Below, in pieces: positions 18,521-52,949 of a stretch of DNA of 64,000 nucleotides. The notes below the pieces were generated by a model. It was given only the letters and a program-made list of their open reading frames with translations. It was not told the DNA's origin and did not search any database. Numbering within the stretch: the stretch's first letter is position 1; every line of letters begins with the position of its first letter. The position numbers and the translations under genes were made by a program. Origin of the DNA: a virus (taxonomy: Duplodnaviria > Caudoviricetes); the IMG/VR virus record IMGVR_UViG_3300022752_000016. One strand, 5' to 3'.

Positions 18521-19306
18521 ATGAATTATTATAATATATTAGGCATAGACAAAAAAGCTACGCCTGATGACATAAAAAAAGCATATAGAAGATTAGCTAG
18601 CCAGCATCATCCTGATAAAGGAGGAGATACTTCCAAATTTCAAGAAATACAAACAGCATATGAAACTTTATGCGATCCTGTTAAAAAACAACAATATGAT
18701 AATCCTGTGCATATAAGAGGACAAAATGGATTTGAATTTAATTTTAATCCAGACAATATAAATGATATTTTGCATCAATTTGGTGGAATACATAATATTT
18801 TTAATCAAAATAGAGGGCTGCAAACTTTTAGAACTATAGTACAACTATCTTTAATGGATGCTTATCAAGGGGTTAAAAAAGCTTTGCAAATACACACAAA
18901 TACTGGATCAAGTATAATAAGTATTGATATACCAAAAGGCATCATGTCAGGACAGCAAATTAAATATGAACAATTGATTCCCAATGCCAATTTATTGGTT
19001 GAATTTGTAGTACAACCTGATTTACACTATGATAGGCAAATGCATGATTTGTATTCAAATGTTCCTATTTCTATATTTAAGTTAATAACTGGAACTACTT
19101 TGAATTTTACTACAATTTCGGGGAAAATGTTAGAGATTGAAGTAAAGCCAATAACACAACCACACATGCAATTAAAATTAATTGGTCAAGGTATGCCTAT
19201 TATAAATTCTTCTAAATTTGGTGACCAAATACTATTGCTTAAACCATTTATACCTGATACTATACACAGTGATATAGTAGATATTTTGAATAAACACAAA
19301 GAGTAA
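18521..19306 (+). CDS. dnaJ: DnaJ/CbpA-like co-chaperone
   Basis: J domain YYNILG...IKKAYRRLASQHHPDKGG; C-terminal DnaJ domain; no zinc finger. Confidence 0.9.
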   Translation: MNYYNILGIDKKATPDDIKKAYRRLASQHHPDKGGDTSKFQEIQTAYETLCDPVKKQQYDNPVHIRGQNGFEFNFNPDNINDILHQFGGIHNIFNQNRGLQTFRTIVQLSLMDAYQGVKKALQIHTNTGSSIISIDIPKGIMSGQQIKYEQLIPNANLLVEFVVQPDLHYDRQMHDLYSNVPISIFKLITGTTLNFTTISGKMLEIEVKPITQPHMQLKLIGQGMPIINSSKFGDQILLLKPFIPDTIHSDIVDILNKHKE

Positions 19307-19314
19307 ATATAATT

Positions 19315-21573
19315 ATGAATTCACCTGAAATTGAAACCATTATTGAGCAGGCTATAATAGTTGCCAAAGAAAAGCAACATGAATATGTTACTATTGAACA
19401 TTTATTGTTGGCATTAATTAATTATTATCCATTTAAAAAATGTTTAAACACATTTAATGTTGATGTAGATGGCTTAGCTAGAGAAATAAACTCATATTTA
19501 GATTCTCTAAATGCGATAAAAGTAAATGAAGAGGTTCAACCTAAAAAAACAAATAGTTTAGAACGTGTAATGAATCGTAGTGTAACCCAAGTTTTGTTTA
19601 CTGGTCGTAGACAGGTTACAACAATAGACTTATATCTAAGTATTGCACTTGAAGGTAATAGTCATGCACATTATTTTTTATTAAAATATGGTATTAATAA
19701 AACAGAATTTGTACAGCATTGGCAGCGTAATTACAAACCTAATGAATATAGTTCAAACTTAACAGAAGTACAAGCTGATGAAATACTTAACGAATATACC
19801 ACAAACCTAACAAAACTTGCCAAAGCAGATAAACTTGAGCCTGTAATTGGAAGAACCAAAGAAATTACTGACATTATTCATATATTAGCACGTAGGTTTA
19901 AATCCAACGTGCTAATGGTAGGAGATCCAGGTGTGGGGAAAACTGCTATAGCAGAAGGTATCGCTAATGCTATTGTAAAAAATGAAGTTCCAGATTTTCT
20001 AAAAAACTACGAATTATTTAGTTTAGAAATAGGTAGTTTATTGGCAGGAAGTCGTTATAGAGGTGACTTTGAAGAAAAAGTAAAACATGTTATTGATGCA
20101 TTAAACACCAAAAAGAAAGCTATTTTATTTGTTGATGAAGCACACACGATGACGAATAGTGGATCGTCTTCACAAGGGTCCCTAGACTTTGCTAACTTGA
20201 TTAAACCTGCACTTACTAAGGGAACAATTAAAATAATTGCAAGTACAACATGGGAAGAATTTTACGAAAGTTTTGAAAAAGATAGGGCATTTATGCGTAG
20301 ATTTTATAAAATTAATATAGATGAGCCTAATTATGAATCTACAATTAGAATTTTGTCTGGATTAAGTGAAAGATTGAATGATTTTCATAATGTTAAAATT
20401 ACAGATGATGCTATCCTAGCGGCTGTTGACTCATCAACTAGATATATTAATGATAAAAAAAACCCAGATAAGTCAATTGATTTATTGGACGCAGCATGTG
20501 CGAAACAACGAGCACTTGGAAATAAGGATTGTGAAATTACAAAACAATTAATTTTTGAACAAGTTGAAAAATACACAGGAGTTCCTGCCGATAAATTGAA
20601 TGGGGATAACTTAGATAAAGTAAATAATCTAGAAGTAAACATAAAATCAAAGCTGTATGGACAAGATAAAACTGTAGAACAAGTTCTTGAACGAGTTTAT
20701 ATTAGCTTTGCTGGAATAGGTAACGAAACTAAACCAATATCAAGTTTTTTATTTTTAGGTCCAACTGGTACAGGTAAAACAGAACTTGCAAAACTTTTAA
20801 GTAAGAATCTTGATATGCCCTTACTTAAATATGATATGAGTGAATATAGCGAAAAACATAGTGTAAGTTCTCTAATAGGTCCTCCCCCAGGATATGTTGG
20901 ATTTAATGATAGTCAAGTGCAAGGTGGTAGATTAATTAGTGATTTAAGTAAAAATCCACATTCTGTTATGTTATTTGATGAAGTGGAAAAAGCTCATCCT
21001 GATATTTTTAATATATTTTTACAAATGTTGGATGAAGGTACCATTACTGGAAGCAATGGAAAAATAGTTAGTTGTAAAAATGCTATTATAATTTTAACTA
21101 GTAATTTAGGTAGTGCGGATAGTGAAAAAAATAATATTGGTTTTGGTGCACAGGAAAAAACTGGAGAAGATGATAGAGCACTACGTGAATTTTTTAAGCC
21201 TGAATTCAGAAATAGATTAGACATGGTTTGTAAATTTAATAAACTTGATACGTTAGCAATAAAAAAGATTGTGGTAAAATTTGTTAATGCACTTAAAACT
21301 ACTTTAACAGACAAACATAATATAACTTTTAATTTATCAGAACATGTAATTGAATTTTTAGCTAACCAAGGTTATGATAGTAAAATGGGTGCAAGACCAT
21401 TATCAAGAAAAATTGATGAATTGATTCGTGTACCATTAAGTAAAAAAATTGTATTTGAAAAAATAAAAAATGCTAATGTAATGGCAGTTCTAATAGATGG
21501 TAATATTGTATTTGAAACAAATAAAAAAGTTAATGCTAAAATAGGAGACGATGGAGTCATCGAGGTATTTTAA
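19315..21573 (+). CDS. clpA: ATP-dependent Clp protease ATP-binding subunit ClpA-like
   Basis: Clp N-domain (HEYVTIEHLLLAL), GDPGVGKT, FVDEAH, GPTGTGKT, LFDEVEKAH, IGF loop; no ClpB middle domain. Confidence 0.92.
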   Translation: MNSPEIETIIEQAIIVAKEKQHEYVTIEHLLLALINYYPFKKCLNTFNVDVDGLAREINSYLDSLNAIKVNEEVQPKKTNSLERVMNRSVTQVLFTGRRQVTTIDLYLSIALEGNSHAHYFLLKYGINKTEFVQHWQRNYKPNEYSSNLTEVQADEILNEYTTNLTKLAKADKLEPVIGRTKEITDIIHILARRFKSNVLMVGDPGVGKTAIAEGIANAIVKNEVPDFLKNYELFSLEIGSLLAGSRYRGDFEEKVKHVIDALNTKKKAILFVDEAHTMTNSGSSSQGSLDFANLIKPALTKGTIKIIASTTWEEFYESFEKDRAFMRRFYKINIDEPNYESTIRILSGLSERLNDFHNVKITDDAILAAVDSSTRYINDKKNPDKSIDLLDAACAKQRALGNKDCEITKQLIFEQVEKYTGVPADKLNGDNLDKVNNLEVNIKSKLYGQDKTVEQVLERVYISFAGIGNETKPISSFLFLGPTGTGKTELAKLLSKNLDMPLLKYDMSEYSEKHSVSSLIGPPPGYVGFNDSQVQGGRLISDLSKNPHSVMLFDEVEKAHPDIFNIFLQMLDEGTITGSNGKIVSCKNAIIILTSNLGSADSEKNNIGFGAQEKTGEDDRALREFFKPEFRNRLDMVCKFNKLDTLAIKKIVVKFVNALKTTLTDKHNITFNLSEHVIEFLANQGYDSKMGARPLSRKIDELIRVPLSKKIVFEKIKNANVMAVLIDGNIVFETNKKVNAKIGDDGVIEVF

Positions 21574-25454: not shown

Positions 25455-26102
25455 ATGAGAGCAACAGATTTAATGGAAATGGGTACTGTAGCAGGGGCAT
25501 TTGCTACAGTAGCGAAGCCTATGGGCGAAACACAAAAACGTGGTGTAAAAGTTGCTGGGTTACAACCAGCAGAAAAAGTTATGACTGGGAAGTCAAAGAA
25601 AAAAGGCCCATATCAAAATAGTATAAATGAAGGCAAAATGAAAGATTTGTCATTAGACCTACGCAGTGATAAGGATGGTTTATCTGATATGGAATTTAAA
25701 AAGAAATATGGTAAAACCAAAGAAGAAATGCGTAAATCTCTTAAAGCGAATAAAGAGAAAAAAGTTAATGAAGCTGAATTAAGTGAAGATGATATTATAC
25801 TAGTGCCAGGGCAAGGTAGGAAATTTAAGACTGGTTTTGTCCCAAAAGGAGAAAGTAGAGTTGACCACGAAGTAGAAATGGCACGTAGTGATTTATTTCA
25901 AACAGCTAAAAATGCCCAACAAGTATATAAGTTAATAAAAAATTTAAGTGAAGATGATGGATTAGAAGGTTGGGTACAAGAGAAAATAATCAAAGCAAAC
26001 GATTATTTAAATTCAGTACGTGAATATTTAGAACATAAAACTTATATGCAAGAAATGTCAGGTGGTGTTATTGCAGCAGGTGGCGTTGGCGAGTCAAAAT
26101 GA
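25455..26102 (+). CDS. Putative internal head protein (modular, CTS-like N-terminus MRATDLME)
   Basis: N-terminus resembles other MRAxEF genes; modules separated by INE/VNE/LSE/MQE. Confidence 0.6.
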   Translation: MRATDLMEMGTVAGAFATVAKPMGETQKRGVKVAGLQPAEKVMTGKSKKKGPYQNSINEGKMKDLSLDLRSDKDGLSDMEFKKKYGKTKEEMRKSLKANKEKKVNEAELSEDDIILVPGQGRKFKTGFVPKGESRVDHEVEMARSDLFQTAKNAQQVYKLIKNLSEDDGLEGWVQEKIIKANDYLNSVREYLEHKTYMQEMSGGVIAAGGVGESK

Positions 26103-29100
26103 GTTCTATAATAAAAGGCTTAGTCAACGAGGATGAAGCTGCTGGTATGAGGTGGGAAGAGGAACTTATGGATGCTTGGGCACCCTATGCTGCCAAGCAT
26201 ATGGCTAAAGTCGTAAAGCAAGCTTTCAACAATCTTTATCCAAATGTAAAATTAAAAGTTTGGGCGGAAGCTGAAGGAGTCTCAGCAACCACTGATCCAG
26301 CCAGTGTTAATGTCAAAGCCGATGTGTTTGGACAATATGGAAAAAAAGATTGGGAATGTAATTTCTTTTGTGGACCTTTATATAATGTAGAGGATGATCG
26401 TAAATATCTTGAACTAATGGTTGAAGATGCCGCTAGCGGAAGTTATCCTGGTGTATGGAGGATAATACTTAGTGAATGGAAAAAATGGGCTAGTAGCCAA
26501 TTAAAAAAAACTGGTGCTGATGATGTTTGTTTCAGTGTAGATGAAGACATGAGCGGCGGTGCGTGGGGGAAAGTTGCTGGTGCTGTTGGTATTAAATTTA
26601 TAGCACGTGACCTAGATGAAGGTGTGGCGGAAGGCTCAGGTCCAATAAGTAAAACCAAAGCACTTAACGCACTAAGAAAAGAACTAATGAATTCATATGA
26701 GTATATGAAATGTGGGAATTTGGAAGAATTTAAACAAAGATTACAATGGCTCAGTGAAGGAATGTTGAAGAATCACATGACTGGTGGAAAAACAACAGCA
26801 ATTAACCAGAAAGAAATTGAACTATATAAGGAATATCGTAAAAAACGAGAACAGATTCAACAAGGATTTACATCGCAAGGTGTGGCGGAAGGCTTAACCC
26901 CGAGTATTATACACAAATTAGCAGACCGTAAAGGAATCAAATGGGACAACGAGCCAAGTTTTCTTAAACTTACAAAAAGATTAACAGGCAAAGAACACCT
27001 AGACGATTTGGATCAAACAGAGTTACAAAAAGTCAAACAACATTTAGAAAAGCAAGATGTGGCGGAAGCGTTAAATTATGATAGAGAACCTTTGTATCAT
27101 GCTACATTAAAAGCATTTGAGCCTAGTATCATAAAATCAGGACTACTACCAGGCGGTAATTTAAGAATGTTTGACTGGAGTGACAAAAAGTATGTATACC
27201 TTAGTAACTATCCTGACATAGCACGAGATTTTGTTGATCCTGGAGTAATAGAACCAAGTCAAGAACACGAAGACCAAATATTTAAATTAATGAAACAGGG
27301 CGGTGTTATATTTAAAATAGATCAAAATAAATTAGACAGAAAGTTATTAATGTCTGATCCACATTTTCAAAGTGACGCAGATGATGGTGCAGAAACTTAT
27401 GTATATAGTGGTATAATTTCACCAAGTGCTATAATAGGAAAAAAGTATTTTAGAATAGATGAATCAGTTGGGGTAGAAATGGTATTGGACAAGGTGAATG
27501 GTATGGCTGAAAGTAATAGATTATATAAGTATCATCAAAAATTAAGAAAACAAGCTGGATTACCTGATCCACAAGAATACTTAAGAATGCAGAAACAAAA
27601 ATTAATTGAACTAATATTACTTAATGATCCTAACCAAGAATTAAACGTATTAGAATTAGCAACAATACCTGAGTTAAAAGAAATATATCAAATGATTAAA
27701 AAAGTTGATGAAGATAATACATATCAATTTGCTGCTGAAAAGACTCCAGTAATTAGTCCATACGTAGGCGTTAAAGATAATCAATTTCGTGGTGCGATTG
27801 GTGAAGGTATAAGAAGTATGTTTGAAGAACCCAACCATAGTCCAACTGATGCAGGGTACCAAGAAGGTGGTTGGAGAGTAATGTATAAAGATGAGATGAA
27901 TGAAGATTTACGCAAATGGTTTAAAGAGAAATGGGTAAGATTTGGACCAGATGGTAAGATTCGTGGTGCATGTGCTAGGGGTGATGATAGTGAGGGCAAG
28001 CCAAAATGTTTGCCACAAAGTAAAGCACATAGCTTAGGCAAGAAGGGTCGTGCTAGTGCTGCTTCTAGAAAGCGTAGGGAAGATCCTAACCCAGAGCGTA
28101 GCGGCAAGGCAATAAATGTTGCTACAAAAAAGAAAAAATCCAATGAGGGAAGTAATATGTATGAAGCAAGTGATATCTCAGGTTTATTGGCAGCTAGTCA
28201 TTTAAATAAATCATTTATTATAACTGCTATTACAGCAGAAGGACAAAAAAAGAAATTTCGTGTAAAAGCACAGAATGAAAGAGTTGCTAAAGAAAAGTTT
28301 CTAAAGCACCATAGTATGGCAAAAATACTTGATATAAAAGAAGAAAATATGCAAGAAATGCAAGGTTCTTCAAACGTTACTGATTTAAATATTAAACAAT
28401 TAGCTACTATTAGTGATGAAGCATTAGACAAAGCATATGGTTATGGTCGTAGTACTCCAGGAAATTCATTTGGTTGGCAAGCTAATTTAATGTCAGCTGC
28501 CTATGCTAAAAAAATGATAGATGCTGGTATAACGGATATTGAAAAAATAGCGGACGCAATTCACAAAGGTTGGAATGTTACCGCACAAAAGTTTGTGCAA
28601 AATCCTGATCAGTTTGATGATACAGAAAAGTTACGTCAAGCAGGAAAGCTTGATGCCAAGTTACAACAACGTGCAAAATTAATGAAAATTAATTATTCCC
28701 AACTTGACAATGATGAACAAGAAAAAGACCGTGTAGTTGCTAGAGCATTATTAAAAGCTATAAAAGGTCAACAAAATGTGACTGAAGAAAAATGCCCACA
28801 TTGTAGTGGTCCAATGTTTGAAATGAGTTTAATGAATGAAAAGAAAGATGCATGTTATTACAAAGTTAAAAGTCGCTATAAAGTATGGCCATCAGCATAT
28901 GCCAGTGGTGCTTTAGTTAAGTGTCGTAAAAAAGGTGCTAAGAATTGGGGCACTAAATCTGAAAGTTCAATTATGAAGGGTTTACAAAGTGAAGGTCAGA
29001 TTTATAGCACTGGTGGGGGAGCAGGACAAGCGCAACGTTATTATACTCCAAAAGATAATTTAGGTGAAGAACAACTGGATGAATTAAAATGTTGGCCTGG

Positions 29101-29158
29101 TTACAAGCGTAAAAAAGGAGTTAAAGCAGGAGCCTCGGGTAGTTGTGAGAAGATATAA
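26099..29158 (+). CDS. 1019-aa modular polyprotein (putative head cargo) with ART/Tpt1-like and RyR-like modules
   Basis: Unrelated modules joined by GVAEG/DVAEA/xNE linkers; LYHAT..VYLS module; HKGW..NYSQLDNDEQEKDR module; CYYKVKSRYKVWPSAYASG module. Confidence 0.7.
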   Translation: MSSIIKGLVNEDEAAGMRWEEELMDAWAPYAAKHMAKVVKQAFNNLYPNVKLKVWAEAEGVSATTDPASVNVKADVFGQYGKKDWECNFFCGPLYNVEDDRKYLELMVEDAASGSYPGVWRIILSEWKKWASSQLKKTGADDVCFSVDEDMSGGAWGKVAGAVGIKFIARDLDEGVAEGSGPISKTKALNALRKELMNSYEYMKCGNLEEFKQRLQWLSEGMLKNHMTGGKTTAINQKEIELYKEYRKKREQIQQGFTSQGVAEGLTPSIIHKLADRKGIKWDNEPSFLKLTKRLTGKEHLDDLDQTELQKVKQHLEKQDVAEALNYDREPLYHATLKAFEPSIIKSGLLPGGNLRMFDWSDKKYVYLSNYPDIARDFVDPGVIEPSQEHEDQIFKLMKQGGVIFKIDQNKLDRKLLMSDPHFQSDADDGAETYVYSGIISPSAIIGKKYFRIDESVGVEMVLDKVNGMAESNRLYKYHQKLRKQAGLPDPQEYLRMQKQKLIELILLNDPNQELNVLELATIPELKEIYQMIKKVDEDNTYQFAAEKTPVISPYVGVKDNQFRGAIGEGIRSMFEEPNHSPTDAGYQEGGWRVMYKDEMNEDLRKWFKEKWVRFGPDGKIRGACARGDDSEGKPKCLPQSKAHSLGKKGRASAASRKRREDPNPERSGKAINVATKKKKSNEGSNMYEASDISGLLAASHLNKSFIITAITAEGQKKKFRVKAQNERVAKEKFLKHHSMAKILDIKEENMQEMQGSSNVTDLNIKQLATISDEALDKAYGYGRSTPGNSFGWQANLMSAAYAKKMIDAGITDIEKIADAIHKGWNVTAQKFVQNPDQFDDTEKLRQAGKLDAKLQQRAKLMKINYSQLDNDEQEKDRVVARALLKAIKGQQNVTEEKCPHCSGPMFEMSLMNEKKDACYYKVKSRYKVWPSAYASGALVKCRKKGAKNWGTKSESSIMKGLQSEGQIYSTGGGAGQAQRYYTPKDNLGEEQLDELKCWPGYKRKKGVKAGASGSCEKI
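26619..27071 (+). repeat. Three dispersed 18-nt direct repeats AAGGTGTGGCGGAAGGCT at module junctions
   Basis: Copies at 26619-26636 and 26877-26894 are identical; 27054-27071 matches 15/18. Confidence 0.9.
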
Positions 29159-29159
29159 T

Positions 29160-29570
29160 ATGAGAGCAAAAGAGTTTATTACCGAAACAATAGTAAAACC
29201 AGTAGATCCTATCACTAAAATTCAGCGTGATAAACCACGTCAACCACCAACACATTTAAGTAAATTAAAAAAGCCAAGTGAACCTGCTGCTAAAATAAGT
29301 TTTGCACATGAATTAGAAAAATACAAACGATTACCTGAGGGCAATGATGAAGAATTTCACACAGGTGGTAGTCCAGGAATTCCTTTCCCTACAACATATG
29401 AACAAGAATATAAACCATTTACGCAAAAAGGACAAAGAAGAATTACAGCAATGACTAATGAAGAACAAGTTGATGAAAAATGGAGTAATAAGTATAAGCG
29501 TAGTATAAATTGTAATAATCCAAAAGGGTTTAGTCAACGTGCTCACTGCCAAGGGAGGAAAAAGAAATGA
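29160..29570 (+). CDS. Putative internal head protein (CTS-like MRAKEFITE)
   Basis: ATG 29160; C-terminal KWSNKYKRSINCNNPKGFSQRAHC module. Confidence 0.65.
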   Translation: MRAKEFITETIVKPVDPITKIQRDKPRQPPTHLSKLKKPSEPAAKISFAHELEKYKRLPEGNDEEFHTGGSPGIPFPTTYEQEYKPFTQKGQRRITAMTNEEQVDEKWSNKYKRSINCNNPKGFSQRAHCQGRKKK

Positions 29571-30513: not shown

Positions 30514-31209
30514 ATGAGAGCAACAGAATTTATTTTTGAAAGAAAAAGATCAAAAAGAAAATCTTTAAGAAAATACTTTTTTCCAGGCTTTTCTTATTAT
30601 GGTTTTTCAGGGTCAGGAGAAGACAGTGGAGGTGACGGAGGAGGTGAAAGCATTTATGAAACACCTGAATTAGAGTTAGCGAAACGTTTACCTAGTTTAT
30701 CCAAACATGATTATAATACAATTGATAAATTAATGCGTGAAATTAGTAAAAAACATAGTATTACTGGAAAAGCTTTACATAACTTGTTTGTAAAGAAATA
30801 TCATAAAACACCAGATGATTGGATAAAAAATAAATTAGATGAAACCAGTACCGATAATACTATCACTGATGATGTACAAAAATTTGGCCAATGGGCTAGT
30901 AAAATACTTAAATTACAGAATCCACCTGCAATTAAATTAAGTCAGGACACTGGAGAGGCACAAACTCATCATCATACAGGAAGACATGTGGATGGTGAAG
31001 ATAGTGTTTGGGTATATGTAAGAAATAGAAATTTAGTTGATATTCTTAGAACAGTATTTCATGAACTTGTACATGTAAGACAAGGTGAATTGGGTAAGAT
31101 TAAACCTGGTTCTAGTTATCCAGGTAGTCCAATTGAAGCCGAGGCCGATGTTTTAGCAGGGAAGTATATTAAAATATACGGTAAAGAAAACCCACATATT
31201 TTCCAATAA
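30514..31209 (+). CDS. Putative internal head protein with C-terminal zincin (HExxH) metallopeptidase-like module
   Basis: MRATEFIFE N-terminus; RTVFHELVHVRQ...EAEA. Confidence 0.7.
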   Translation: MRATEFIFERKRSKRKSLRKYFFPGFSYYGFSGSGEDSGGDGGGESIYETPELELAKRLPSLSKHDYNTIDKLMREISKKHSITGKALHNLFVKKYHKTPDDWIKNKLDETSTDNTITDDVQKFGQWASKILKLQNPPAIKLSQDTGEAQTHHHTGRHVDGEDSVWVYVRNRNLVDILRTVFHELVHVRQGELGKIKPGSSYPGSPIEAEADVLAGKYIKIYGKENPHIFQ

Positions 31210-31509
31210 TTAATTACTTTTTATTTCATCAAATGATTTAATAATTTCTAATTGAGAAGGATCATGTTTTTTATTATATGGAACAGGAAGTGATTGCCAT
31301 TCTTGCTCACTAATATCACAAGCTATAACCACCTGATACTTATGTCCATCACTTGTATATAGTTCAATAGTATCCAGTCCAATTACTGATTTACTTGTTT
31401 TTATTAATGCTTCACCTAAGGCTCTGAGTGCCTGTTTTTCTCCAACAATATATGCTCTACCATTTGGTTCTGCATGATTATGCATATGTAATCTTGATTT
31501 AACTTGCAT
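31210..31509 (-). CDS. Hypothetical protein
   Basis: 99-aa ORF coupled to the DnaE-like gene. Confidence 0.65.
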   Translation of the reverse strand: MQVKSRLHMHNHAEPNGRAYIVGEKQALRALGEALIKTSKSVIGLDTIELYTSDGHKYQVVIACDISEQEWQSLPVPYNKKHDPSQLEIIKSFDEIKSN

Positions 31510-33226
31510 TTAATAAATCTTTCAAACTTAGTCGTTTATGTTTCTTAACTGTAACATATTCTGTGTTGTTTTTGTAGCCTAATTTACCCACACCCCATAC
31601 TATTGGGTAATCATGTAAACTAACCGCTTTATCTAATATAACATCAATATAACGATTATTACCTGTTCCTAAGGTAACGAATGTAATATATTCTTTTGGT
31701 TTACTTTTAAATACACGATAATTGGCTACTAGTCCACAAAACTCTACCTCACCTGGTTTCCTCAACTCAGTACAAAAAGGTAAAAACTTTTTACTATGCC
31801 AATGACCCTGTGTCATTAATTCATTGATTTCATTGCCTTCGTACACACTTGTTATTGCCCCTGCCAATTTGGCCTCATGATGGTATACCCAACGGCTATA
31901 ACTACCTTGGCAATGTTTCAAAACAGCACGCCAAAACTTTTCAGGATTATGTGCTTTTTGATACGCAATTGCCCATATCAAACGTCCTAAATTAATCGCA
32001 TGTGCCCTACATAATCCAAAATTACTTAATTCTGTTAATGCATAAAAAACTTCTTCTTTGTTTTCATGGTTACCTATCAAATCCATAAACTCAAATATTT
32101 TTTCTTCATTACGTTTAGCAAAGGCACGACGCCACATATCTGCTTCATATTGGTTACAATCTAATAGTTTACTAATTAACATGATTGCATCATCTTCAAA
32201 CACAATAGTATTATCAAATGTGTCTTTGCTCCAATCACGGAAAAAACTGGCTTTGCGACGACCTTGTGTGGCAACTGGTCTAATTAATGCTGTAGCTAAT
32301 ACACAATCTTCACGTTTGGTTGGTTTTATAGCCCTAAATAATCTACGCATTGCAGGACTCTCTGCCTGTGTGACTCCCAAAACGTTACCGCTACGTAATA
32401 ACTCAGCAGTTTTTTCATCATATTCAGGATAGTCCAACAAGTTTTTTGTAGGGTCTATTTCATAGAGTTGAGATAGTCCTCGATTGGATAATATGTCAAT
32501 TTTAAAATGTTCTAAATCTTCAATTTCATATTTGTCTAATAGTATTTGGTTTTCTGCATTGATTAAACTTTTCGGGACAGCACGATCAAATATTAATATA
32601 CCACCACAATGTTTACTGATACAACGTTTTTTACCTAATAATTTATTAACCAAGCGTTTTGCTTCATCAGCAAATTCTGGTACAACTTTGTCTAAATCTA
32701 TATTTCTAGGTAATCTACCCTTCGCACCATATCGTTTTGCTGCCTCACGTATGGCACTTTTCTCTTTATATGTAACATAATTGCTTACCCGTGCTGATTG
32801 ACCTTTCCAATGATTAAAGATACGATTCATCACTGTTTCTTGTTGATAATGCGGGAAGTCTAAATCAATGTCTGGTAAATCATCACGTTTTGGGTTCATA
32901 AAACGTGCTAATGGTATTTTTTCTTTAATTGGATCAACATCACTAATACCAAGTAACCAACATAATAAACTACTTCCTGCACTACCACGAGTCATATGTG
33001 GTATATCTTTAGTTAATTCTAATATTTCTACTACACGTAAGAAGTGTTTTGCGAAACCTAATTTTGCTATGAGTTCTAGTTCTTCTTCTAACCTATTTTC
33101 GTATTCTATGTCGTTTGGTAAATTTCTTGTAAATTTCTTTATTAATATTTCTAGTTCTTTATATCTACTTTCCATATTTGTGCCTATTGTATGTGCCATA
33201 AGTTTTTTATTTATTTGGTAAAACAA
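31499..33226 (-). CDS. dnaE: DNA polymerase III alpha-like (DnaE) lacking the PHP domain; true start may be 33199 or 33175
   Basis: RGSAGSSLLCWLLG, PDIDLDF, HCGGILI, KIDIL, FGLCRAHA, C-terminal OB-like region. Confidence 0.85.
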   Translation of the reverse strand: MFYQINKKLMAHTIGTNMESRYKELEILIKKFTRNLPNDIEYENRLEEELELIAKLGFAKHFLRVVEILELTKDIPHMTRGSAGSSLLCWLLGISDVDPIKEKIPLARFMNPKRDDLPDIDLDFPHYQQETVMNRIFNHWKGQSARVSNYVTYKEKSAIREAAKRYGAKGRLPRNIDLDKVVPEFADEAKRLVNKLLGKKRCISKHCGGILIFDRAVPKSLINAENQILLDKYEIEDLEHFKIDILSNRGLSQLYEIDPTKNLLDYPEYDEKTAELLRSGNVLGVTQAESPAMRRLFRAIKPTKREDCVLATALIRPVATQGRRKASFFRDWSKDTFDNTIVFEDDAIMLISKLLDCNQYEADMWRRAFAKRNEEKIFEFMDLIGNHENKEEVFYALTELSNFGLCRAHAINLGRLIWAIAYQKAHNPEKFWRAVLKHCQGSYSRWVYHHEAKLAGAITSVYEGNEINELMTQGHWHSKKFLPFCTELRKPGEVEFCGLVANYRVFKSKPKEYITFVTLGTGNNRYIDVILDKAVSLHDYPIVWGVGKLGYKNNTEYVTVKKHKRLSLKDLLNAS

Positions 33227-34203: not shown

Positions 34204-34493
34204 ACAACGATATAATTTTAAACATATATTCTTGGGTAAAACAGGATTGGAAATCTAATCCTTTAAGATTTTTTATAGAATTATTGGCTTGGACTATAAG
34301 TATTGGTTGTGCCTTGATTATGGCACTAACTGTACCTAACCCTCCTCTTATGATATTATATCCATTGTGGATATTAGGATGTATACTGTATGCTTGGGCA
34401 TCATACTCAAGAAAATCATTTGGTATGTTGGGAAATTATTTGTTACTTACTTCAGTTGATATTATTGGATTAGCAAGGTTATTAATACAATGA
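34200..34493 (+). CDS. Small membrane protein
   Basis: Three hydrophobic segments. Confidence 0.7.
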   Translation: MNNDIILNIYSWVKQDWKSNPLRFFIELLAWTISIGCALIMALTVPNPPLMILYPLWILGCILYAWASYSRKSFGMLGNYLLLTSVDIIGLARLLIQ

Positions 34494-37198
34494 GTTATAT
34501 AGACGCCATACACGATAGAGATAGTGATAAAATTTATGTAGTAGAACGTACTACAGATGGCAAACGTACCTATAAAGAGTTTCCAGCTAATTATACATTT
34601 TACTATAGTGATCCTAAAGGTAAATATCGCAGCATATACGGAGATACTGTAGCCAAATTTAGCACAAGAAAACGTAGTGAGTTTGAAAAAGAACGACGGA
34701 TTCATGCAAATAAAAAATTATTTGAAAGTGATATTAACGTAGTTTATCGATGCCTTTCGGAAAACTATCTTAAAGTAGAAGCTCCAAAATTACACACTGT
34801 GTTTTTTGATATTGAAGTAGACTTTGATCCTGAAAAAGGATTTAGCCCAACAACTGATCCATTTAATCCTGTCACTGCAATTAGTTTGTATTTGGATTGG
34901 TTAGATCAGTTAGTTACCCTATGTATTCCACCAAAACATATGAGCCAAGAAACGGCCAATGATTTGACTAAACACATGAACAATACTATGCTATTTGATA
35001 ATGAAAAAGAAATGTTTGAAACATTCTTTCAACTTATTGAAGATGCAGATGTATTGACAGGTTGGAATAGTGAAGGATACGATATACCATATATGGTTAA
35101 TCGTGTAACACGTATAATGAGTAAGGATGATACCAGAAAATTCTGTTTACTTGGACAAACTCCTAAAATGCGTACATATGAACGATTTGGAAAAGATGAG
35201 CAAACTTATGATTTAGTTGGTCGTATTCATATGGATTATTTGCAGTTATATAAGAAGTATAACTATGAATCACGCCATAGTTATGCACTAGATTTTATTG
35301 GCGAAATGGAAGTAGGAGAAAACAAAACAAAATATGAAGGTACATTAGATCAATTGTACAACAAAGATTTTGTCACGTTTTTAGAATATAATCGCCAAGA
35401 TACAATGTTACTTGTTAAAATTCATAATAAACTTAAATTCTTAGATTTAGCCAATGCACTAGCGCATGAAAATACTGTATTGATTCCCACAGTAATGGGT
35501 AGTGTGGCTATGATTGAAATGGCTATTATGAATGAAGCACATGAACGTGGTTTAGTAGTACCTGATAAAAAACGAAAGGAACATAGTGATGAACAACAAG
35601 CAGCAGGTGCCTTTGTTGCTACGCCCAAAAGGGGTATACACGAATACGTCGGAGCGGTCGATATCAACAGTCTATACCCGTCAGCAATCCGCGCTCTTAA
35701 CATGGCGCCAGAAACCATTGTTGGACAAATCAGACAAACTCTTACAGACCAATACATGAAAGAAAAGGGCAATAAACTTGCCCGTGAAAAAAAATATTAT
35801 AAAGATGGTGATGATGATGTCACTGGAGCGATTCTATGGGAAGGATTATTTGGTAGTTTAGAATATACTGCTATAATGAATCGTGAACGTGGAACTATGC
35901 TTACACTAGATTATGAAGATGGACGAAGTGTAGAAATGAGTGCCTGTGAAATATGGAAACTTGTATTTGATAGTCATAAACCATATATTCTCAGCGCAAA
36001 TGGTACTATCTTTAGACATGACCAAGAAGGTGTGATCCCAGGATTATTAACACGTTGGTACAGTGATCGTAAAGTTATGCAGAAAAAATTAAAAGAAAGC
36101 ACAACTGATGAAGATAAAGAATACTGGGATAAAAGACAACTTGTTCGTAAGATTTTACTAAACTCAGCATATGGTGCATTGTTAAATGAACATTGTCGTT
36201 TTTATGATAAACGTATTGGTCAAAGTGTTACATTAACAGGTCGGCAAATCGTTAAGCATATGATGAGTACCATTAATGAAGTTATTACTGGTGAATACAA
36301 TCACGAAGGTTCAGCAATTGTATATGGTGATACTGACAGTTGCTATTTCAGTGCATACCCAATTCTAAAATCACAAATAGAAAATACGGAAGTAGACTGG
36401 AATAAAGACCTATGTATTCAATTATACGACAATATTGCTGAACAAGCGAATCAATCGTTTCCTAGTTTTATGGAACGTGCATTTCATTGTCCAAGAAAAA
36501 ATGGAGAAATTATTGTAGCTGGTCGTGAATTGATTGGTGATCGTAGCATTTTTATTACTAAAAAACGTTATGCAATTAATATTTACGATAAAGAAGGTAA
36601 GCGTAAAGACGTAAATGGGAAACAAGGTGATATCAAAGCAATGGGACTTGACTTAAAACGTGCAGATACTCCGAAATTCATACAAGAATTTTTAATGCAT
36701 ATTTTAGAAATGGTACTAGCTGGTAAACAAAAAGAAGATATCATAGAAAAAATTAAAACGTTTAAAAATATATTATCTGAGCGTGATAGTTGGTTGAAGG
36801 GTACACCTAAATCAGTAAACAAGCTTACATACTATGGTGAATTAGAAAAAAACAGTAAAACAGGCAAAGTAAACATGCCTGGACATGTTCGTGCTGCACT
36901 TAACTACAACTATCTACGTAAGGCTAATAGTGATAACTACAGCATGAAAATCGTAGATGGGATGAAAGTTGTGGTATGCAAATTAAAAAGTAATCCATTA
37001 GGGTTTACAAGTATTGCATATCCCACAGATGAGTTACGTTTGCCTAAATGGTTTTGTGAATTACCATTTGATGATATTGAGATGGAACGTGGTTTAGTAG
37101 ATGAAAAGATTGATAACCTATTAGGTGTGTTAAATTGGGACTTAAGACGTAGTACAGATACTACAACAACATTTGATGAGTTGTTTACATTTGGTTAA
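34490..37198 (+). CDS. Family B DNA polymerase (T4 gp43-like)
   Basis: Exo I FFDIE, DINSLYPS, KILLNSAYG, YGDTDS. Confidence 0.97.
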   Translation: MSYIDAIHDRDSDKIYVVERTTDGKRTYKEFPANYTFYYSDPKGKYRSIYGDTVAKFSTRKRSEFEKERRIHANKKLFESDINVVYRCLSENYLKVEAPKLHTVFFDIEVDFDPEKGFSPTTDPFNPVTAISLYLDWLDQLVTLCIPPKHMSQETANDLTKHMNNTMLFDNEKEMFETFFQLIEDADVLTGWNSEGYDIPYMVNRVTRIMSKDDTRKFCLLGQTPKMRTYERFGKDEQTYDLVGRIHMDYLQLYKKYNYESRHSYALDFIGEMEVGENKTKYEGTLDQLYNKDFVTFLEYNRQDTMLLVKIHNKLKFLDLANALAHENTVLIPTVMGSVAMIEMAIMNEAHERGLVVPDKKRKEHSDEQQAAGAFVATPKRGIHEYVGAVDINSLYPSAIRALNMAPETIVGQIRQTLTDQYMKEKGNKLAREKKYYKDGDDDVTGAILWEGLFGSLEYTAIMNRERGTMLTLDYEDGRSVEMSACEIWKLVFDSHKPYILSANGTIFRHDQEGVIPGLLTRWYSDRKVMQKKLKESTTDEDKEYWDKRQLVRKILLNSAYGALLNEHCRFYDKRIGQSVTLTGRQIVKHMMSTINEVITGEYNHEGSAIVYGDTDSCYFSAYPILKSQIENTEVDWNKDLCIQLYDNIAEQANQSFPSFMERAFHCPRKNGEIIVAGRELIGDRSIFITKKRYAINIYDKEGKRKDVNGKQGDIKAMGLDLKRADTPKFIQEFLMHILEMVLAGKQKEDIIEKIKTFKNILSERDSWLKGTPKSVNKLTYYGELEKNSKTGKVNMPGHVRAALNYNYLRKANSDNYSMKIVDGMKVVVCKLKSNPLGFTSIAYPTDELRLPKWFCELPFDDIEMERGLVDEKIDNLLGVLNWDLRRSTDTTTTFDELFTFG

Positions 37199-50092: not shown

Positions 50093-50913
50093 AGAAAATA
50101 CTAATAACAGGAAATAGTGGTTATATTGGATCGCATCTTACCAAGCTACTAAGCAAAGATTATGAAGTACATGGATTAGATAAAAAAGATTTGATTGTAC
50201 CAGTAAAAGAATTTTACAAATTAGATATTAACCGAAAATTTGTATTGCCTATAGAATTTGATTGTGTAGTGCATTTAGCAGCATTGGTTAATGTGGGCGA
50301 AAGTGAAACCAATTCAATAAATTATTACATCACCAATGTAAATGGTACAATGAATGTATTAGCAAACATTAAAACTAAAAACTTTATATTTTCTAGTACA
50401 GGAGCAGCGGAATTTTGTAAAAGTGCATATGGTGTAACAAAACGATCAGCAGAATATATTATAAAAGAATATTGCACACTTCATTCACAAACTCCATATA
50501 CTATTTTTAGATTTTATAATGTCATCGGTAATGATGGAATTAACCCAACAAATCCAGACGGATTATTTTATAATTTAATTAAAGCTAAAGATACAGGTAC
50601 TTTTACTATATATGGCAAAGATTATGAAACACCTGATGGCACTTGTTTACGTGACTATGTACATGTTAATGAAATTTGTCATGCAATTAAAACCGCAATA
50701 GAAAAACCAAGTAATAGTATTGAATGTCTTGGACATGGTGTAGGATACAGCGTTAAAGAAATTGTAAATAAATTTCAAATTGTAAATCAGTGTGATTTTG
50801 ATATTAAATATGGACTAAGACGATTAGGTGATTTACCTGTCAGCGTATTAGAAGATGTGTCGCCATATATGGAAAATTTATATACTATTGATGAATTACT
50901 TAAAGTTACATAA
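50089..50913 (+). CDS. NAD-dependent epimerase/dehydratase (GalE-like)
   Basis: ITGNSGYIGSH, HLAA, YGVTK, RFYNV, DGTCLRDYVHV. Confidence 0.9.
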   Translation: MKKILITGNSGYIGSHLTKLLSKDYEVHGLDKKDLIVPVKEFYKLDINRKFVLPIEFDCVVHLAALVNVGESETNSINYYITNVNGTMNVLANIKTKNFIFSSTGAAEFCKSAYGVTKRSAEYIIKEYCTLHSQTPYTIFRFYNVIGNDGINPTNPDGLFYNLIKAKDTGTFTIYGKDYETPDGTCLRDYVHVNEICHAIKTAIEKPSNSIECLGHGVGYSVKEIVNKFQIVNQCDFDIKYGLRRLGDLPVSVLEDVSPYMENLYTIDELLKVT

Positions 50914-51766
50914 CAAATATTTTGCCAACACTGCTTGCTAATACATCATTAAACATCATTTCCATATCATTAGCTAACACATCACTAGCATTTTTCCTAT
51001 CTGCTTCATCACGGTATTCAGGTTTGATACTCATGTATTTCGTTGGATTACCAAACACTTTACGTCCATATCCTAAATTAGTTGGAAATGGATTTAAAGT
51101 AATTTTTCCTGTTCCTAAATATTGAGCAAATAACTCATACATAAATTCGTAGGGGCGTCTGATTTGACCACTACGACTACTACGCTGTGTTCCTATAGCG
51201 TTAAACAATGCATTGTATTCTTGTGTTAATGTCCATTTTATTGCTGGCATATTATATGGTTTACCTAATTTACTATAATACTTATCAAGTAAATTATTTA
51301 CGGTTCCAAAAAAGTGTTTTTCAGCTTCAGCCCACTCACTCCATCCTTGACTTCTACGAACTCCTGCTTGTATAGCATGACCAAAACGATGTGCCATTAA
51401 CCATGGTGTTAACATTACTTTAGCGTCTCCACGATTGCCGACGTACACAACAGTAATGGCATTTTCATGCCCATCGAGTATTTGATCTGCTTGTTCTTTA
51501 TTAAAAGTATTTCTTATTTCTCCTGGATGCATTGGGCCATGTTCGCTATATTTACCAAAGCCAGATACATTAGTAAAGAACAACCTAAAATCATATGGAG
51601 TTCTTTCAAAAAACTTTTGCGTTTTTAATTCACTTTTAGGGTGGGGTATTAATCTTTTATCTACGCCACGAAATGGTCCAGGTTTTGTAAAGTCACCAAA
51701 CGTTTGGTACTTAGACAATGCCATTTCATCAACTTCGCTCTCCCTAAGAAACTCAATCGCTCGCAT
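50906..51766 (-). CDS. Putative internal head protein (CTS-like MRAIEFLRE), HRxGH motif
   Basis: 286-aa ORF; VDEMAL linker; WLMAHRFGHAI. Confidence 0.65.
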   Translation of the reverse strand: MRAIEFLRESEVDEMALSKYQTFGDFTKPGPFRGVDKRLIPHPKSELKTQKFFERTPYDFRLFFTNVSGFGKYSEHGPMHPGEIRNTFNKEQADQILDGHENAITVVYVGNRGDAKVMLTPWLMAHRFGHAIQAGVRRSQGWSEWAEAEKHFFGTVNNLLDKYYSKLGKPYNMPAIKWTLTQEYNALFNAIGTQRSSRSGQIRRPYEFMYELFAQYLGTGKITLNPFPTNLGYGRKVFGNPTKYMSIKPEYRDEADRKNASDVLANDMEMMFNDVLASSVGKIFVM

Positions 51767-51767
51767 A

Positions 51768-52949
51768 TTAGTGAAACATTAAGAACTGATTTTGTACATC
51801 TAATCTTGGCGCACCTAAGTCCCCATGCCCTGCAGGGAATACAACAACATTCCATTTTGGCTTAGGACCTTCAGGAATCTTTACCATTTGATCATATGTA
51901 ATAATGCTATCTTTATCAATATTATATTTACTTGCTAATTTATTTTTAAATTGATCCCATGCTTCGTTACTAGCAATAATTGTTTTACCATCTTCATCCT
52001 TAATATACTTACCTTTTTGATCTGTTTTAAATAAACCCTTAAAGAATTCTTTTGGTAATGTTACAGCATCTTTAACAAACTTGCCTTTATCTCTAGCAAA
52101 TTGCACTGTTTTTACTTCTTTACTCTTTGCTCCTGGGCTAAACTGCTTAACAACATTTGGTGGGCTGTTTGGATCCGTAACTATTTCGCCCATTTTACTA
52201 TAGAAATAAAATCTTACATCAGGATTCATTCTAGCAACATCCATCATTAAATCATAATAATCTTTACTAAAGAAATCCCCTGCATCATGTATACGAACTA
52301 ATAACTTTATACCAGCTTTGTCTACTCTAGCTTTAGCTTGTTTAACTTCACGGTCAAACATTTTCATATAATCTATTGGATGATTTAATAAGAAGTTTAA
52401 TGCTCTAGCAGCACTCATACTACTGCCTGGGAACATTACATAACCACCTTTTCTAGCATAACAATATAATTGACATTCACCAGCACCTGGGCATGTTTCT
52501 ACTTCAACGAAAACTGGCTCACCTGCTGAACTTGCTTCTTCATCAACTACAATACCACTTAATGCTGGTAATGTTAAATCATAAGTAATAGCACCCTCTT
52601 TTTTACTTTTAGCCATTTTAGCATTTGTGCCTAAAATACTATTTGGAGGTGTTGTTATTTGGTTAGCTAAATCTACTAAATCCCATTCTGTATTCTCATT
52701 GTCCTTTGTGATTGCTTTAATATTACTTGCGTGTATAATAGGCTTAAAGCGATCAGATTTAGTTTTTTCACCACTTTTAATGCGTGTCAAGTATGCTTGT
52801 AAGTCTTTCTTGTCATATTGTTTTTGAGGAATATCAACTTTGAGTGCTTCATCGACACCCTGTTGTTCAATATTTAATGGTGTGACAGGAAACCCGCCCA
52901 ATGTACTTACGGACATTTTATCTTCAAATAAAATTTCATTAATTTTCAT
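51768..52949 (-). CDS. GP88-like Cys-cluster protein with CTS-like N-terminus
   Basis: MKINEILFE...QQGVDEA; TCPGAGECQLYCYARKG; VRIHDAGDF; FYFYSK. Confidence 0.7.
   Translation of the reverse strand: MKINEILFEDKMSVSTLGGFPVTPLNIEQQGVDEALKVDIPQKQYDKKDLQAYLTRIKSGEKTKSDRFKPIIHASNIKAITKDNENTEWDLVDLANQITTPPNSILGTNAKMAKSKKEGAITYDLTLPALSGIVVDEEASSAGEPVFVEVETCPGAGECQLYCYARKGGYVMFPGSSMSAARALNFLLNHPIDYMKMFDREVKQAKARVDKAGIKLLVRIHDAGDFFSKDYYDLMMDVARMNPDVRFYFYSKMGEIVTDPNSPPNVVKQFSPGAKSKEVKTVQFARDKGKFVKDAVTLPKEFFKGLFKTDQKGKYIKDEDGKTIIASNEAWDQFKNKLASKYNIDKDSIITYDQMVKIPEGPKPKWNVVVFPAGHGDLGAPRLDVQNQFLMFH

Follow-up and report, generated by a model that had tools for sequence, protein, structure and literature searches.

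We report a phage gene whose protein product is a mosaic of recurring modules, and whose modules meet at a short junction that is conserved in the DNA as well as in the protein. The gene occupies 26099..29158 (+) of a 64,000-nucleotide (nt) stretch of tailed-phage DNA (IMG/VR record IMGVR_UViG_3300022752_000016; hereafter, the window) and is a single open reading frame (ORF) for a polyprotein of 1019 amino acids (aa), labelled P0001. Its modularity, the conservation of the junctions in DNA, breakpoints at the junctions in related sequences and one recent unequal crossover were observed directly. The half of our reading that concerns recombination and DNA conservation is well supported, and the junction string is not an integron. 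Overall, our preferred reading, held with moderate confidence, is that a large T4-related aquatic phage makes P0001 as a polyvalent 'internal protein' whose junctions function in proteolysis as well as in recombination. Its packaging into the head, its cleavage and its injection are steps that we infer.

Modules and junctions of the polyprotein

The features of the gene are listed below; a slash marks the predicted cleavage point within a junction.

26099..26131 (+): N-terminal leader MSSIIKGLVNE, ending in V-N-E; a putative capsid-targeting propeptide, by analogy with the T4 sequence
26132..26632 (+): N-module (residues 12-178), without family assignment; internal in P0002, P0003, P0018 and P0021 at 77-85% identity
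26619..26636 (+): junction 1, exact 18-mer AAGGTGTGGCGGAAGGCT reading DEGVAE/GS; the scissile bond is predicted after base 26632
26633..26890 (+): module 2 (residues 179-264), recurring in P0008, P0009, P0041, P0045 and P0046
26877..26894 (+): junction 2, exact 18-mer AAGGTGTGGCGGAAGGCT reading SQGVAE/GL, from the repeat scan
26891..27067 (+): module 3, a 52-aa domain (IHKLAD..WDNEPSFL..GKEHLDDL) plus linker (alignment A1)
27054..27071 (+): junction 3, a decayed 15/18 copy with 3 mismatches reading KQDVAE/AL, from the repeat scan
27068..27511 (+): ADP-ribosyltransferase (ART)-like module (residues 324-471), ending in the decayed junction GMAE/S (27500-27511)
27512..28786 (+): composite of at least four shuffled sub-modules (about residues 472-597, 598-684, 691-753 and 747-896), delimited by alignment end points; it matches phrog_727 and phrog_23735 and ends in the junction NVTE/E (28775-28786)
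28787..28963 (+): CPHC...KVWPSAYASG module, DUF5872-like on a weak Pfam DUF5872 match; phrog_3477
28964..28993 (+): internal leader copy SSIMKGLQSE with Glu on both sides, also in P0007, P0022, P0023, P0084 and P0095
28994..29155 (+): C-terminal module, recurring apart in P0004-P0007, P0023 and P0038

When compared with its relatives by BLAST, P0001 resolved into at least ten independently recurring modules that stand in other orders in other proteins, and 103 other proteins carry its modules singly, in differing order. The three 18-mer junctions split the chain into segments of 178, 86, 59 and 148 aa, and the C-terminal 550 residues are likewise mosaic. An earlier interpretation made from the letters alone (hereafter, the sequence-only reading) had placed exact copies of the 18-mer at 26619 and 26877 and a 15/18 copy at 27054, all spelled with GTG-GCG-GAA in an AT-rich genome and each at a boundary between unrelated modules. 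This description holds: the three copies are all in frame, the guanine-plus-cytosine (GC) content of the window around the polyprotein is about 30-36%, and the flanking segments recur independently in other proteins. The same is true of the motif SSI(I/M)KGL that it had noted near both ends of the protein, which occurs as SSIIKGL from residue 2 and as SSIMKGL from residue 956. The decayed junctions at 27500 and 28775 in the same ORF come in addition to what had been described. Chance was excluded as the source of the 18-mer repeat, because shuffled sequence gave 0.02 matches on average and three were reached in 0 of 100 shuffles.

The individual modules have separate histories. The leader MSSIIKGLVNE also opens P0004, P0006, P0023, P0027 and P0095, and the internal SSIMKGLQSE is probably the relic leader of a gene that was fused in. 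In lake metagenomes, the N-module (26264-26695) had a summed contig depth of 5-20x that of the remainder of the gene; it is evidently also present in more abundant relatives, and in the source study (contigs of at least 93% likeness) the more abundant relatives share it and diverge at 26623. Twelve IMG/VR loci were matched through module 2 alone, and P0002 and the locus L195 lack that module. Module 3 has no family assignment and is about 80% identical across mosaic proteins that are otherwise unrelated. Its profile matched 388 cluster representatives (50% identity clusters) at E<=1e-3. The proteins that contain it range from 62 aa, a stand-alone copy, to 3654 aa, and it can be located anywhere along the chain; it is missing from the relative L001 and from one X8 contig.

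In 10 other mosaic proteins, the ART-like module shows about 80% conservation; it contains a second possible site, RIDE/S. It gave no Pfam and no PDB sequence-profile match, and its AlphaFold model, with a predicted local distance difference test score (pLDDT) of 48, was too poor for a fold search. Atlas features returned Arr-ms in 24 of 100 matches and PARP in 1 of 100, which we take as a lead only towards an Arr/PARP-type ADP-ribosyltransferase. The relatives do carry true ADPrib_exo_Tox modules, as assigned by Pfam. The CPHC...KVWPSAYASG module is present in many Synechococcus phages (tblastn).

To collect relatives, 5.8 billion proteins were searched via shared 5-residue words. The 104 relatives obtained are 560-1700 aa long and very different in domain content, and the motif GVAE occurs 256 times in 87 of them, up to 10 times per chain and with variable flanks. 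The consensus is (K/E)-Q-G-V-A-E-G, seen in hundreds of mosaic aquatic-phage proteins. Since the family search rests on 5-residue words, the motif count was repeated on an index-free sample, for which the module 3 profile (alignment A1) was run with plain HMMER against 1.84 billion representatives. Among the 134 new cluster representatives, GVAE was found 57 times versus 1.5 expected from composition (38x) and was the commonest 4-mer outside module 3, which ruled out an artefact of the word index.

The spacing between junctions has a median of 82 residues (5-95% range, 50-275), and the Pfam domains of the relatives each fall between consecutive junctions. These domains include Pol-beta nucleotidyltransferase, DUF6321, DUF5872, GNAT, Zeta toxin/AAA_33, HD_4, ADPrib_exo_Tox, dCMP deaminase, ASCH, NUDIX, ParB_N and helix-turn-helix (HTH) families. 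Contigs with this stretch came from freshwater, lake and some marine metagenomes. Literature searches for 'QGVAEG', and for 'GVAEG' with 'phage', returned no relevant description of the motif from a body of 8.4 million papers.

Exchange at the junctions and conservation of their DNA

The junctions are very probably recombination substrates. Protein alignments between relatives ended within 5 residues of the motif in 19.9% of cases versus 3.9% for random positions, and DNA alignments ended within 12 nt of the junction core in 7.3% versus 0.9%. Single loci illustrate how modules were gained or lost. The 74%-identical relative L001 aligns with 26120-26897 at 85% and with 27052-27541 at 96.5%; within its single junction, these alignments have 23 nt in common, and exactly module 3 is missing. 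In L195 and L196, which encode P0004 and are syntenic with the window, the N-module is joined straight to the SNRLY module starting at 27512, and the joint is a hybrid, DEGMAE/S, to which junction 1 contributes the left half and the junction at 27500 the right half. The joint in P0002 is likewise a hybrid (DEGVAE/AL), of junctions 1 and 3. Contigs from four independent studies connect 26638 to 27050/27051, 26640 to 26875 and 26867 to 27052, that is, junction 1 to 3, 1 to 2 and 2 to 3, respectively, and other contigs lose similarity at 26619, 26623, 26637 and 26893/26894. One contig of the source study has two junction copies that flank an unrelated cassette.

The clearest recent event was found in L208 (protein P0090; gene L208:3001-5334), whose seven junctions all have the exact core. 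In this gene, a two-cassette unit of 453 nt has been duplicated in tandem, and its copies show 2 differences (99.6% identity). Identity between the copies runs 16 nt leftward into the junction and ends right after it, and the novel joint is exactly the product of an unequal crossover within 17 shared junction bases. This crossover looks like short-homology unequal exchange, not site-specific recombination. We rejected an assembly artefact as the source of such joints: the two L208 copies differ at 2 bases and are thus real copies, and the Logan assembler uses a word of about 31 letters, longer than the 18-23 nt shared at the joints, which are therefore unlikely to have arisen from assembly collapse. 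The sequence-only reading had proposed gain, loss and shuffling of cassettes at this very element, and module content does change exactly at the junction in L001, L195, P0002, the contigs of the four studies and the L208 duplication.

The conserved string is about 18-21 nt long, (R)AG CAA GGT GTG GCG GAA GGC. In 31 junction contexts from loci that were found through protein homology only, Ala is spelled GCG in 28, Val GTG in 23 and the first Gly GGT in 27, and the following Gly is GGC in 17 of 22. A larger set comprised 90 junctions, no two of which share both flanks, drawn from a pool minus the copies that seeded the DNA search. Here the codon was GCG for 83% of Ala (6.6% background in the same ORFs), GTG for 79% of Val (18%) and GGT for 94% of first Gly (44%), with binomial tails of 1e-29 to 1e-73 if the sites are independent. 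Where Lys precedes Gln, two positions ahead of the motif, its codon is AAG in 75% versus a background of 31%. The codon bias persists over a locus GC of 0.36-0.52. In five large records, an exact 14-mer was found at 11 of 13 possible GVAEG encodings, for which 128 spellings are possible. The 14-mer occurs in at least 120 IMG/VR contigs among the matches listed, where 146 of its 160 copies are in this reading frame inside ORFs, and its copy number is 1-5 per large genome.

Two controls from the same loci behaved differently from the junctions, with which they share the relatedness among sequences. The invariant residues of module 3 are spelled by 3-6 synonymous codons each, and in the conserved MRAxEF leader the choice of Ala codons follows the background (GCG in 3 of 53). 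The claim of the sequence-only reading that the conservation of the junction codons exceeds protein need is thus upheld at the junctions, and neither control has it. Junctions that depart from the consensus are mostly single-base derivatives of the consensus DNA. For example, DVAE is encoded by GATGTGGCGGAA, the commonest DVAE encoding (6 of 11) and one base off the consensus; other decayed spellings are GGTATGGCGGAA for GMAE, GGTGTGGAGGAA for GVEE and GGTGTGACGGAA for GVTE. As the variants are single-base derivatives, the junctions share descent at the DNA level, followed by decay. On balance, we lean slightly towards the recombination process itself as the cause of the DNA conservation.

Several other sources of the conserved string were considered and rejected. 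The chosen codons are not consistently the rarest, as rare-codon pausing would have it. For an internal start, a Shine-Dalgarno signal or a frameshift signal, no suitably spaced start or slippery sequence was visible. A Chi-like signal that acts independently of frame does not agree with the single frame of 146 of the 160 listed copies, nor with only 1-5 copies per large genome. An origin in GC-rich phages was dismissed as there were no multi-junction ORFs in loci above 0.52 GC.

The sequence-only reading had likened the gene to an integron, and this stands as an analogy only. As in integrons, arrays of exchangeable cassettes are parted by a recurring DNA site. However, integrons have the tyrosine-recombinase integrase IntI beside the array, structured attC sites whose imperfect inverted repeats adopt a single-stranded fold, and cassettes that are whole promoterless genes, and all three of these defining features are lacking here, where the cassettes are in-frame modules within one ORF and the conserved element is a direct, in-frame 18-21-nt string without the inverted repeat of attC. 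No IntI was seen among the annotated neighbours in the window and in L195, L196, L208 and L209, for which no dedicated IntI profile search was run.

Cleavage by a head protease and rival explanations

By analogy with the head proteases known from T4 and from the giant phages, the junctions are likely protease sites. We compared 22 diverse junctions upstream of module 3, with endings such as DIDE/S, NVTE/S, GMAE/D, ILTE/A, SIRE/N, LIAE/S, SVDE/N, ELSE/S and GVAE/G. The residue before the bond (P1) is Glu in 22 of 22, and V, I, L or M usually occupies P3, two places earlier, a constraint expected of a Glu-specific protease and not of a mere linker. The N-termini of the family belong to a few leader types, for example MRAKEFIVE, MSSIIKGLVNE and MIIDDLFE. 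Six genes in the window are leader-tagged (25455, 26099, 29160, 30514, 51766(-) and 52949(-)), each with an N-terminal stretch that ends in hydrophobic-x-Glu, like MKTYQEFIAE, the T4 capsid-targeting sequence that is removed by gp21 (PMC8442874). Short motifs are also the targets of T4 gp21 and its homologues in giant phages, with the cut placed after Glu; these enzymes act on internal and ejection proteins, in some cases at several sites of one protein (PMC9026906, PMC5694885). Of 10 large related records, 4 gave a match to Peptidase_S77, including G006, G007 and G010 (loci L198-L200); one of the 4 is a complete 424-kb genome. In these records the protease adjoins a gp22-like scaffold gene (22-25 hydrophobic-x-Glu sites) and the gene for the gp23 capsid protein, which has four hydrophobic-x-Glu sites within its first 45 residues.

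Under the reading that we favour, the short N-terminal leader would carry the whole chain into the prohead, where a Glu-specific S77 protease of the T4 gp21 type would cut after each hydrophobic-x-Glu junction, most commonly QGVAE/G. Cleavage would free effector modules of 6-30 kDa to be injected with the DNA, among them the ART-like module and, in relatives, nucleotidyltransferase (NTase), ParB, Zeta-kinase, HD, NUDIX, deaminase and GNAT modules. At the DNA level, for which the reading is largely borne out, the in-frame direct repeats act as points of short-homology crossover, whether inside one gene or from one co-infecting phage to another. Exchange there deletes, inserts, duplicates or swaps whole modules with the frame kept, and each exchange would remake a cleavable junction. 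Frequent exchange, together with the better spread of cassettes that have consensus junctions, may keep the DNA homogeneous, and junctions that do not recombine may drift by point mutation yet stay cleavable. A more far-reaching proposal, that the 18-21-nt junction is a selected dual-coded element, both head-protease site and pan-genomic in-frame crossover point, is tentative, and we hold it to be rather doubtful.

Several observations weigh against the favoured reading. The sequence-only reading had named reads that join repeat copies as a check; joints of this kind are present in the contigs of the four studies, but deletion joints were not found among the source-study contigs of at least 93% likeness. 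No second recent intragenic duplication was detected among about 240 proteins, and the read evidence consists of assembled contigs, from which rare variants are dropped. For homologous recombination to be efficient, 17-21 nt of shared sequence is short. The partner junctions of the L195 and P0002 hybrids share only about 10-11 of 15 bases, and with so little identity, illegitimate joins filtered by selection could give the same pattern. Regarding cleavage, the 64-kb window has no protease or major capsid gene, and S77 was not detected in 6 of the 10 large related records, G003 among them. The record G008 (343 kb, rated 99% complete; the record behind L146 and L209) gave no Pfam match for gp23 or S77 and nothing similar to the G010 protease, and it carries four exact junctions and T4-like leaders; either this record is incomplete or the phage has a different head type. 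In addition, P3 is Leu or Ile in the T4 consensus versus Val in the junction. Given a window without head genes and a G008 without detectable S77 or gp23, the case for cleavage is one of analogy.

Other explanations share part of this evidence. The junction could be a protease site only, with its codons fixed by a constraint on RNA or translation (for example, a pause between domains) and the modules shuffled by illegitimate joining and selection. This we judge unlikely, though with a real chance of being right. It would account for P1 Glu and the hydrophobic P3, which outlast decay and so indicate selection on the protein, for the little DNA identity with which the L195 and P0002 hybrid joints formed, and for the strict binding of the motif to one reading frame among the matches listed. 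However, many other hydrophobic-x-Glu junctions evidently work, so cleavage does not need QGVAEG, and conserved peptides elsewhere in the same genes lack codon fixation. Neither do the codons suggest a translational signal: GCG is the rarest choice for Ala, but GTG, GGT and GGC are not the rarest for their residues, nor does the sequence show a convincing Shine-Dalgarno match, a start codon or a slippery site. Moreover, the L208 joint and the L001 indel map within shared bases. Conversely, the junction could be a linker and recombination point only, in a chain that acts or is delivered intact and uncleaved. Transfer as a full-length polypeptide is indeed possible for described polyvalent proteins (PMC5512222), the window encodes no protease, and the near-complete G008 has junctions and no detectable S77. 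In decayed junctions, though, a pure linker would have no need to keep Glu invariant at P1 and a hydrophobic residue at P3. The same type of motif follows short N-terminal leaders, as at T4 capsid-targeting cleavage sites, and the segments between junctions, at 50-275 aa, have the size of T4 internal proteins; we thus consider an uncleaved chain quite improbable.

Two further possibilities invoke a dedicated enzyme. A nuclease or recombinase that recognises the 18-21-nt string would make the system a true functional analogue of the integron, and the conservation of about 21 nt across GC 0.30-0.52, including the third base of the preceding codon, is compatible with it, as is the richness of T4-like phages in homing-type endonucleases (one HNH-like ORF adjoins the capsid gene in L203). 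We regard this as very unlikely, because no recombinase or nuclease consistently adjoins the polyprotein genes, the string has no inverted-repeat structure and occurs only 1-5 times per large genome, and the hybrids between degenerate partners and the simple unequal crossover in L208 fit homology-driven exchange. It is extremely unlikely, in our view, that a co-packaged zincin-type peptidase processes the junctions instead of an S77 protease. The candidate would be the leader-tagged neighbour at 30514..31209, which has an HExxH motif, and metallopeptidase processing was proposed for polyvalent proteins (PMC5512222). This protein has no Pfam peptidase match, its counterpart in G008 shares only the first 30 residues, so that the HExxH part is not conserved, and P1 Glu specificity is a hallmark of S77-type prohead proteases.

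If the junction is indeed a selected dual-coded element, aquatic jumbo phages would trade injected anti-host effectors as cassettes, and any module inserted between two junctions would be packaged, released and delivered at once. The system would then be a protein-level counterpart of the integron, working through short-homology exchange or, less likely, a dedicated enzyme. Proteins injected by phages are their first weapons against bacterial defences, and the fast diversification of these proteins is an open question; a dual junction would explain how dozens of effector domains can be re-assorted in large aquatic phages with function retained. The 14-mer or the 6-residue motif could also be a handle to delimit hundreds of uncharacterised modules that are candidates for anti-defence or host takeover, such as module 3 with its 388 clusters, and the architecture suggests a way to load several cargos into T4-type capsids. 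The junction is, furthermore, a measurable example of synonymous-site constraint within a coding region.

Relation to known systems and genomic neighbourhood

The closest parallels for packaging are the T4 internal proteins IPI-III and Alt. They resemble the family described here in the short leader that ends in hydrophobic-x-Glu (MKTYQEFIAE versus MRAKEFITE, MRATEFIFE and MSSIIKGLVNE), in their diverse, small and non-essential-looking cargo with ADP-ribosyltransferase domains, and in their variable loci (PMC9026906, PMC3012670, PMC12373910); relatives of the P0001 phage also encode an S77 protease alongside gp22 and gp23. The internal proteins of T4 come from one gene apiece and undergo a single cut, whereas here many modules share one ORF with internal junctions that look like cut sites, and the DNA is fixed at the junction but not in the leader. 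In giant phages (phiKZ, 201phi2-1 and SPN3US), head-internal proteins are likewise cut after Glu, sometimes at multiple sites (PMC5694885, PMC9026906). Their motif differs (S/A/G-x-E), the cuts mostly clear propeptides, and neither shuffling nor nucleotide-level conservation of the sites was reported.

Polyvalent proteins, as described from phages and conjugative elements by Iyer, Burroughs, Anand, de Souza and Aravind in 2017, combine 2-15 unrelated conflict domains in a polypeptide, and their domains overlap with those found here (ART, ParB, kinase/Zeta, NTase, NUDIX and GNAT) (PMC5512222). P0001 and its relatives agree with this class, with at least two unrelated effector-type domains in one polypeptide. 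The same study drew the analogy with viral polyproteins and raised recombinational variability as a possibility, and described neither a junction motif between domains nor its conservation in DNA (PMC5512222). Release by an embedded peptidase, such as a metallopeptidase or an assemblin-like enzyme, which is common in the class though not universal, was proposed for polyvalent proteins (PMC5512222), but no peptidase family was matched in P0001 with Pfam and PHROGs. Judging from sequence, the architecture of P0001 seems to combine the packaging logic of T4 internal proteins with the multi-domain design of polyvalent proteins.

Exchange at short conserved sequences has been described for other T4-type genes. 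The T-even gp38 proteins exchange at conserved in-frame glycine-rich motifs (PMC3157838), and the mobile gene cassettes of T4-type genomes are bordered by short conserved sequences termed PeSLs (PMC2839356). The former motifs are the core of one domain and the latter are intergenic promoter-terminator units, and neither doubles as a protease site. The polymorphic-toxin arrangement of the CDI, Rhs and MuF systems, a variable C-terminal toxin followed by its immunity gene, was not seen in the polyprotein, where the variable modules are internal and multiple. In CdiA (VENN) and Rhs (PxxxxDPxGL) toxins, a short conserved peptide borders the swappable modules and its coding DNA provides the homology by which orphan cassettes are swapped in; in Rhs and Tc proteins the same border motif is also the site of proteolytic release. 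These toxins have one variable C-terminal module, paired immunity genes, secretion through type V or type VI systems (T5SS/T6SS) and self-cleavage. We consider CdiA and Rhs the nearest precedent for a junction with two functions; the present system differs in its many junctions per chain, its probable phage-head context, a putative protease acting in trans and the absence of visible immunity genes.

The window phage encodes a T4-like family-B DNA polymerase, a clamp loader and a ClpA/DnaJ pair. Downstream of the polyprotein are further leader-tagged genes and a ferritin/Dps-like gene, and no cognate immunity gene was seen there. The leader-tagged neighbours are as follows.

25455..26102 (+): upstream gene with leader MRATDLME; its end overlaps the start of the polyprotein gene
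29160..29570 (+): downstream gene with leader MRAKEFITE; a homologue is fused to the polyprotein in L195/P0004
30514..31209 (+): leader-tagged protein (MRATEFIFE) with HExxH near its C-terminus, without Pfam peptidase support
50906..51766 (-): leader-tagged protein (MRAIEFLRE), from the leader scan
51768..52949 (-): GP88-family protein with leader MKINEILFE (Pfam PF17338, E=2e-29)

The fusion in P0004 is seen when L195:10001-14077 is compared with window 29160-29570, and the presence of this homologue inside a polyprotein indicates that leader-tagged genes undergo fusion and fission. The GP88-family protein has a junction-like QGVDE/A about 30 residues in (around 52848-52862), in line with the linker that the sequence-only reading had pointed out in this ORF. 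The gene at 30514 (window 30514-30600) and L209:8525-9151 (-), from two distant phages, have a common N-terminus of about 30 residues, consisting of the leader, a basic stretch and then YFFPG(F/Y)xYYG, and their C-terminal parts are unrelated.

Elsewhere in the window, 18521-21573 (+) encodes a DnaJ-like protein followed by a two-ring ClpA-like ATPase, a pair that is kept in L195 and L196. A truncated DnaE-like polymerase (phrog_405) at 31499-33226 (-) lies near the complete family-B polymerase at 34490-37198 (+). The long ORF at 3-4847 (+) is made of hundreds of 9-nt units, CAA GGT NNN, encoding Gln-Gly-X; this collagen-like triplet repeat has higher-order periods of 72, 81 and 153 nt, 46% GC and a strong purine skew, and the product is probably a fibre protein.

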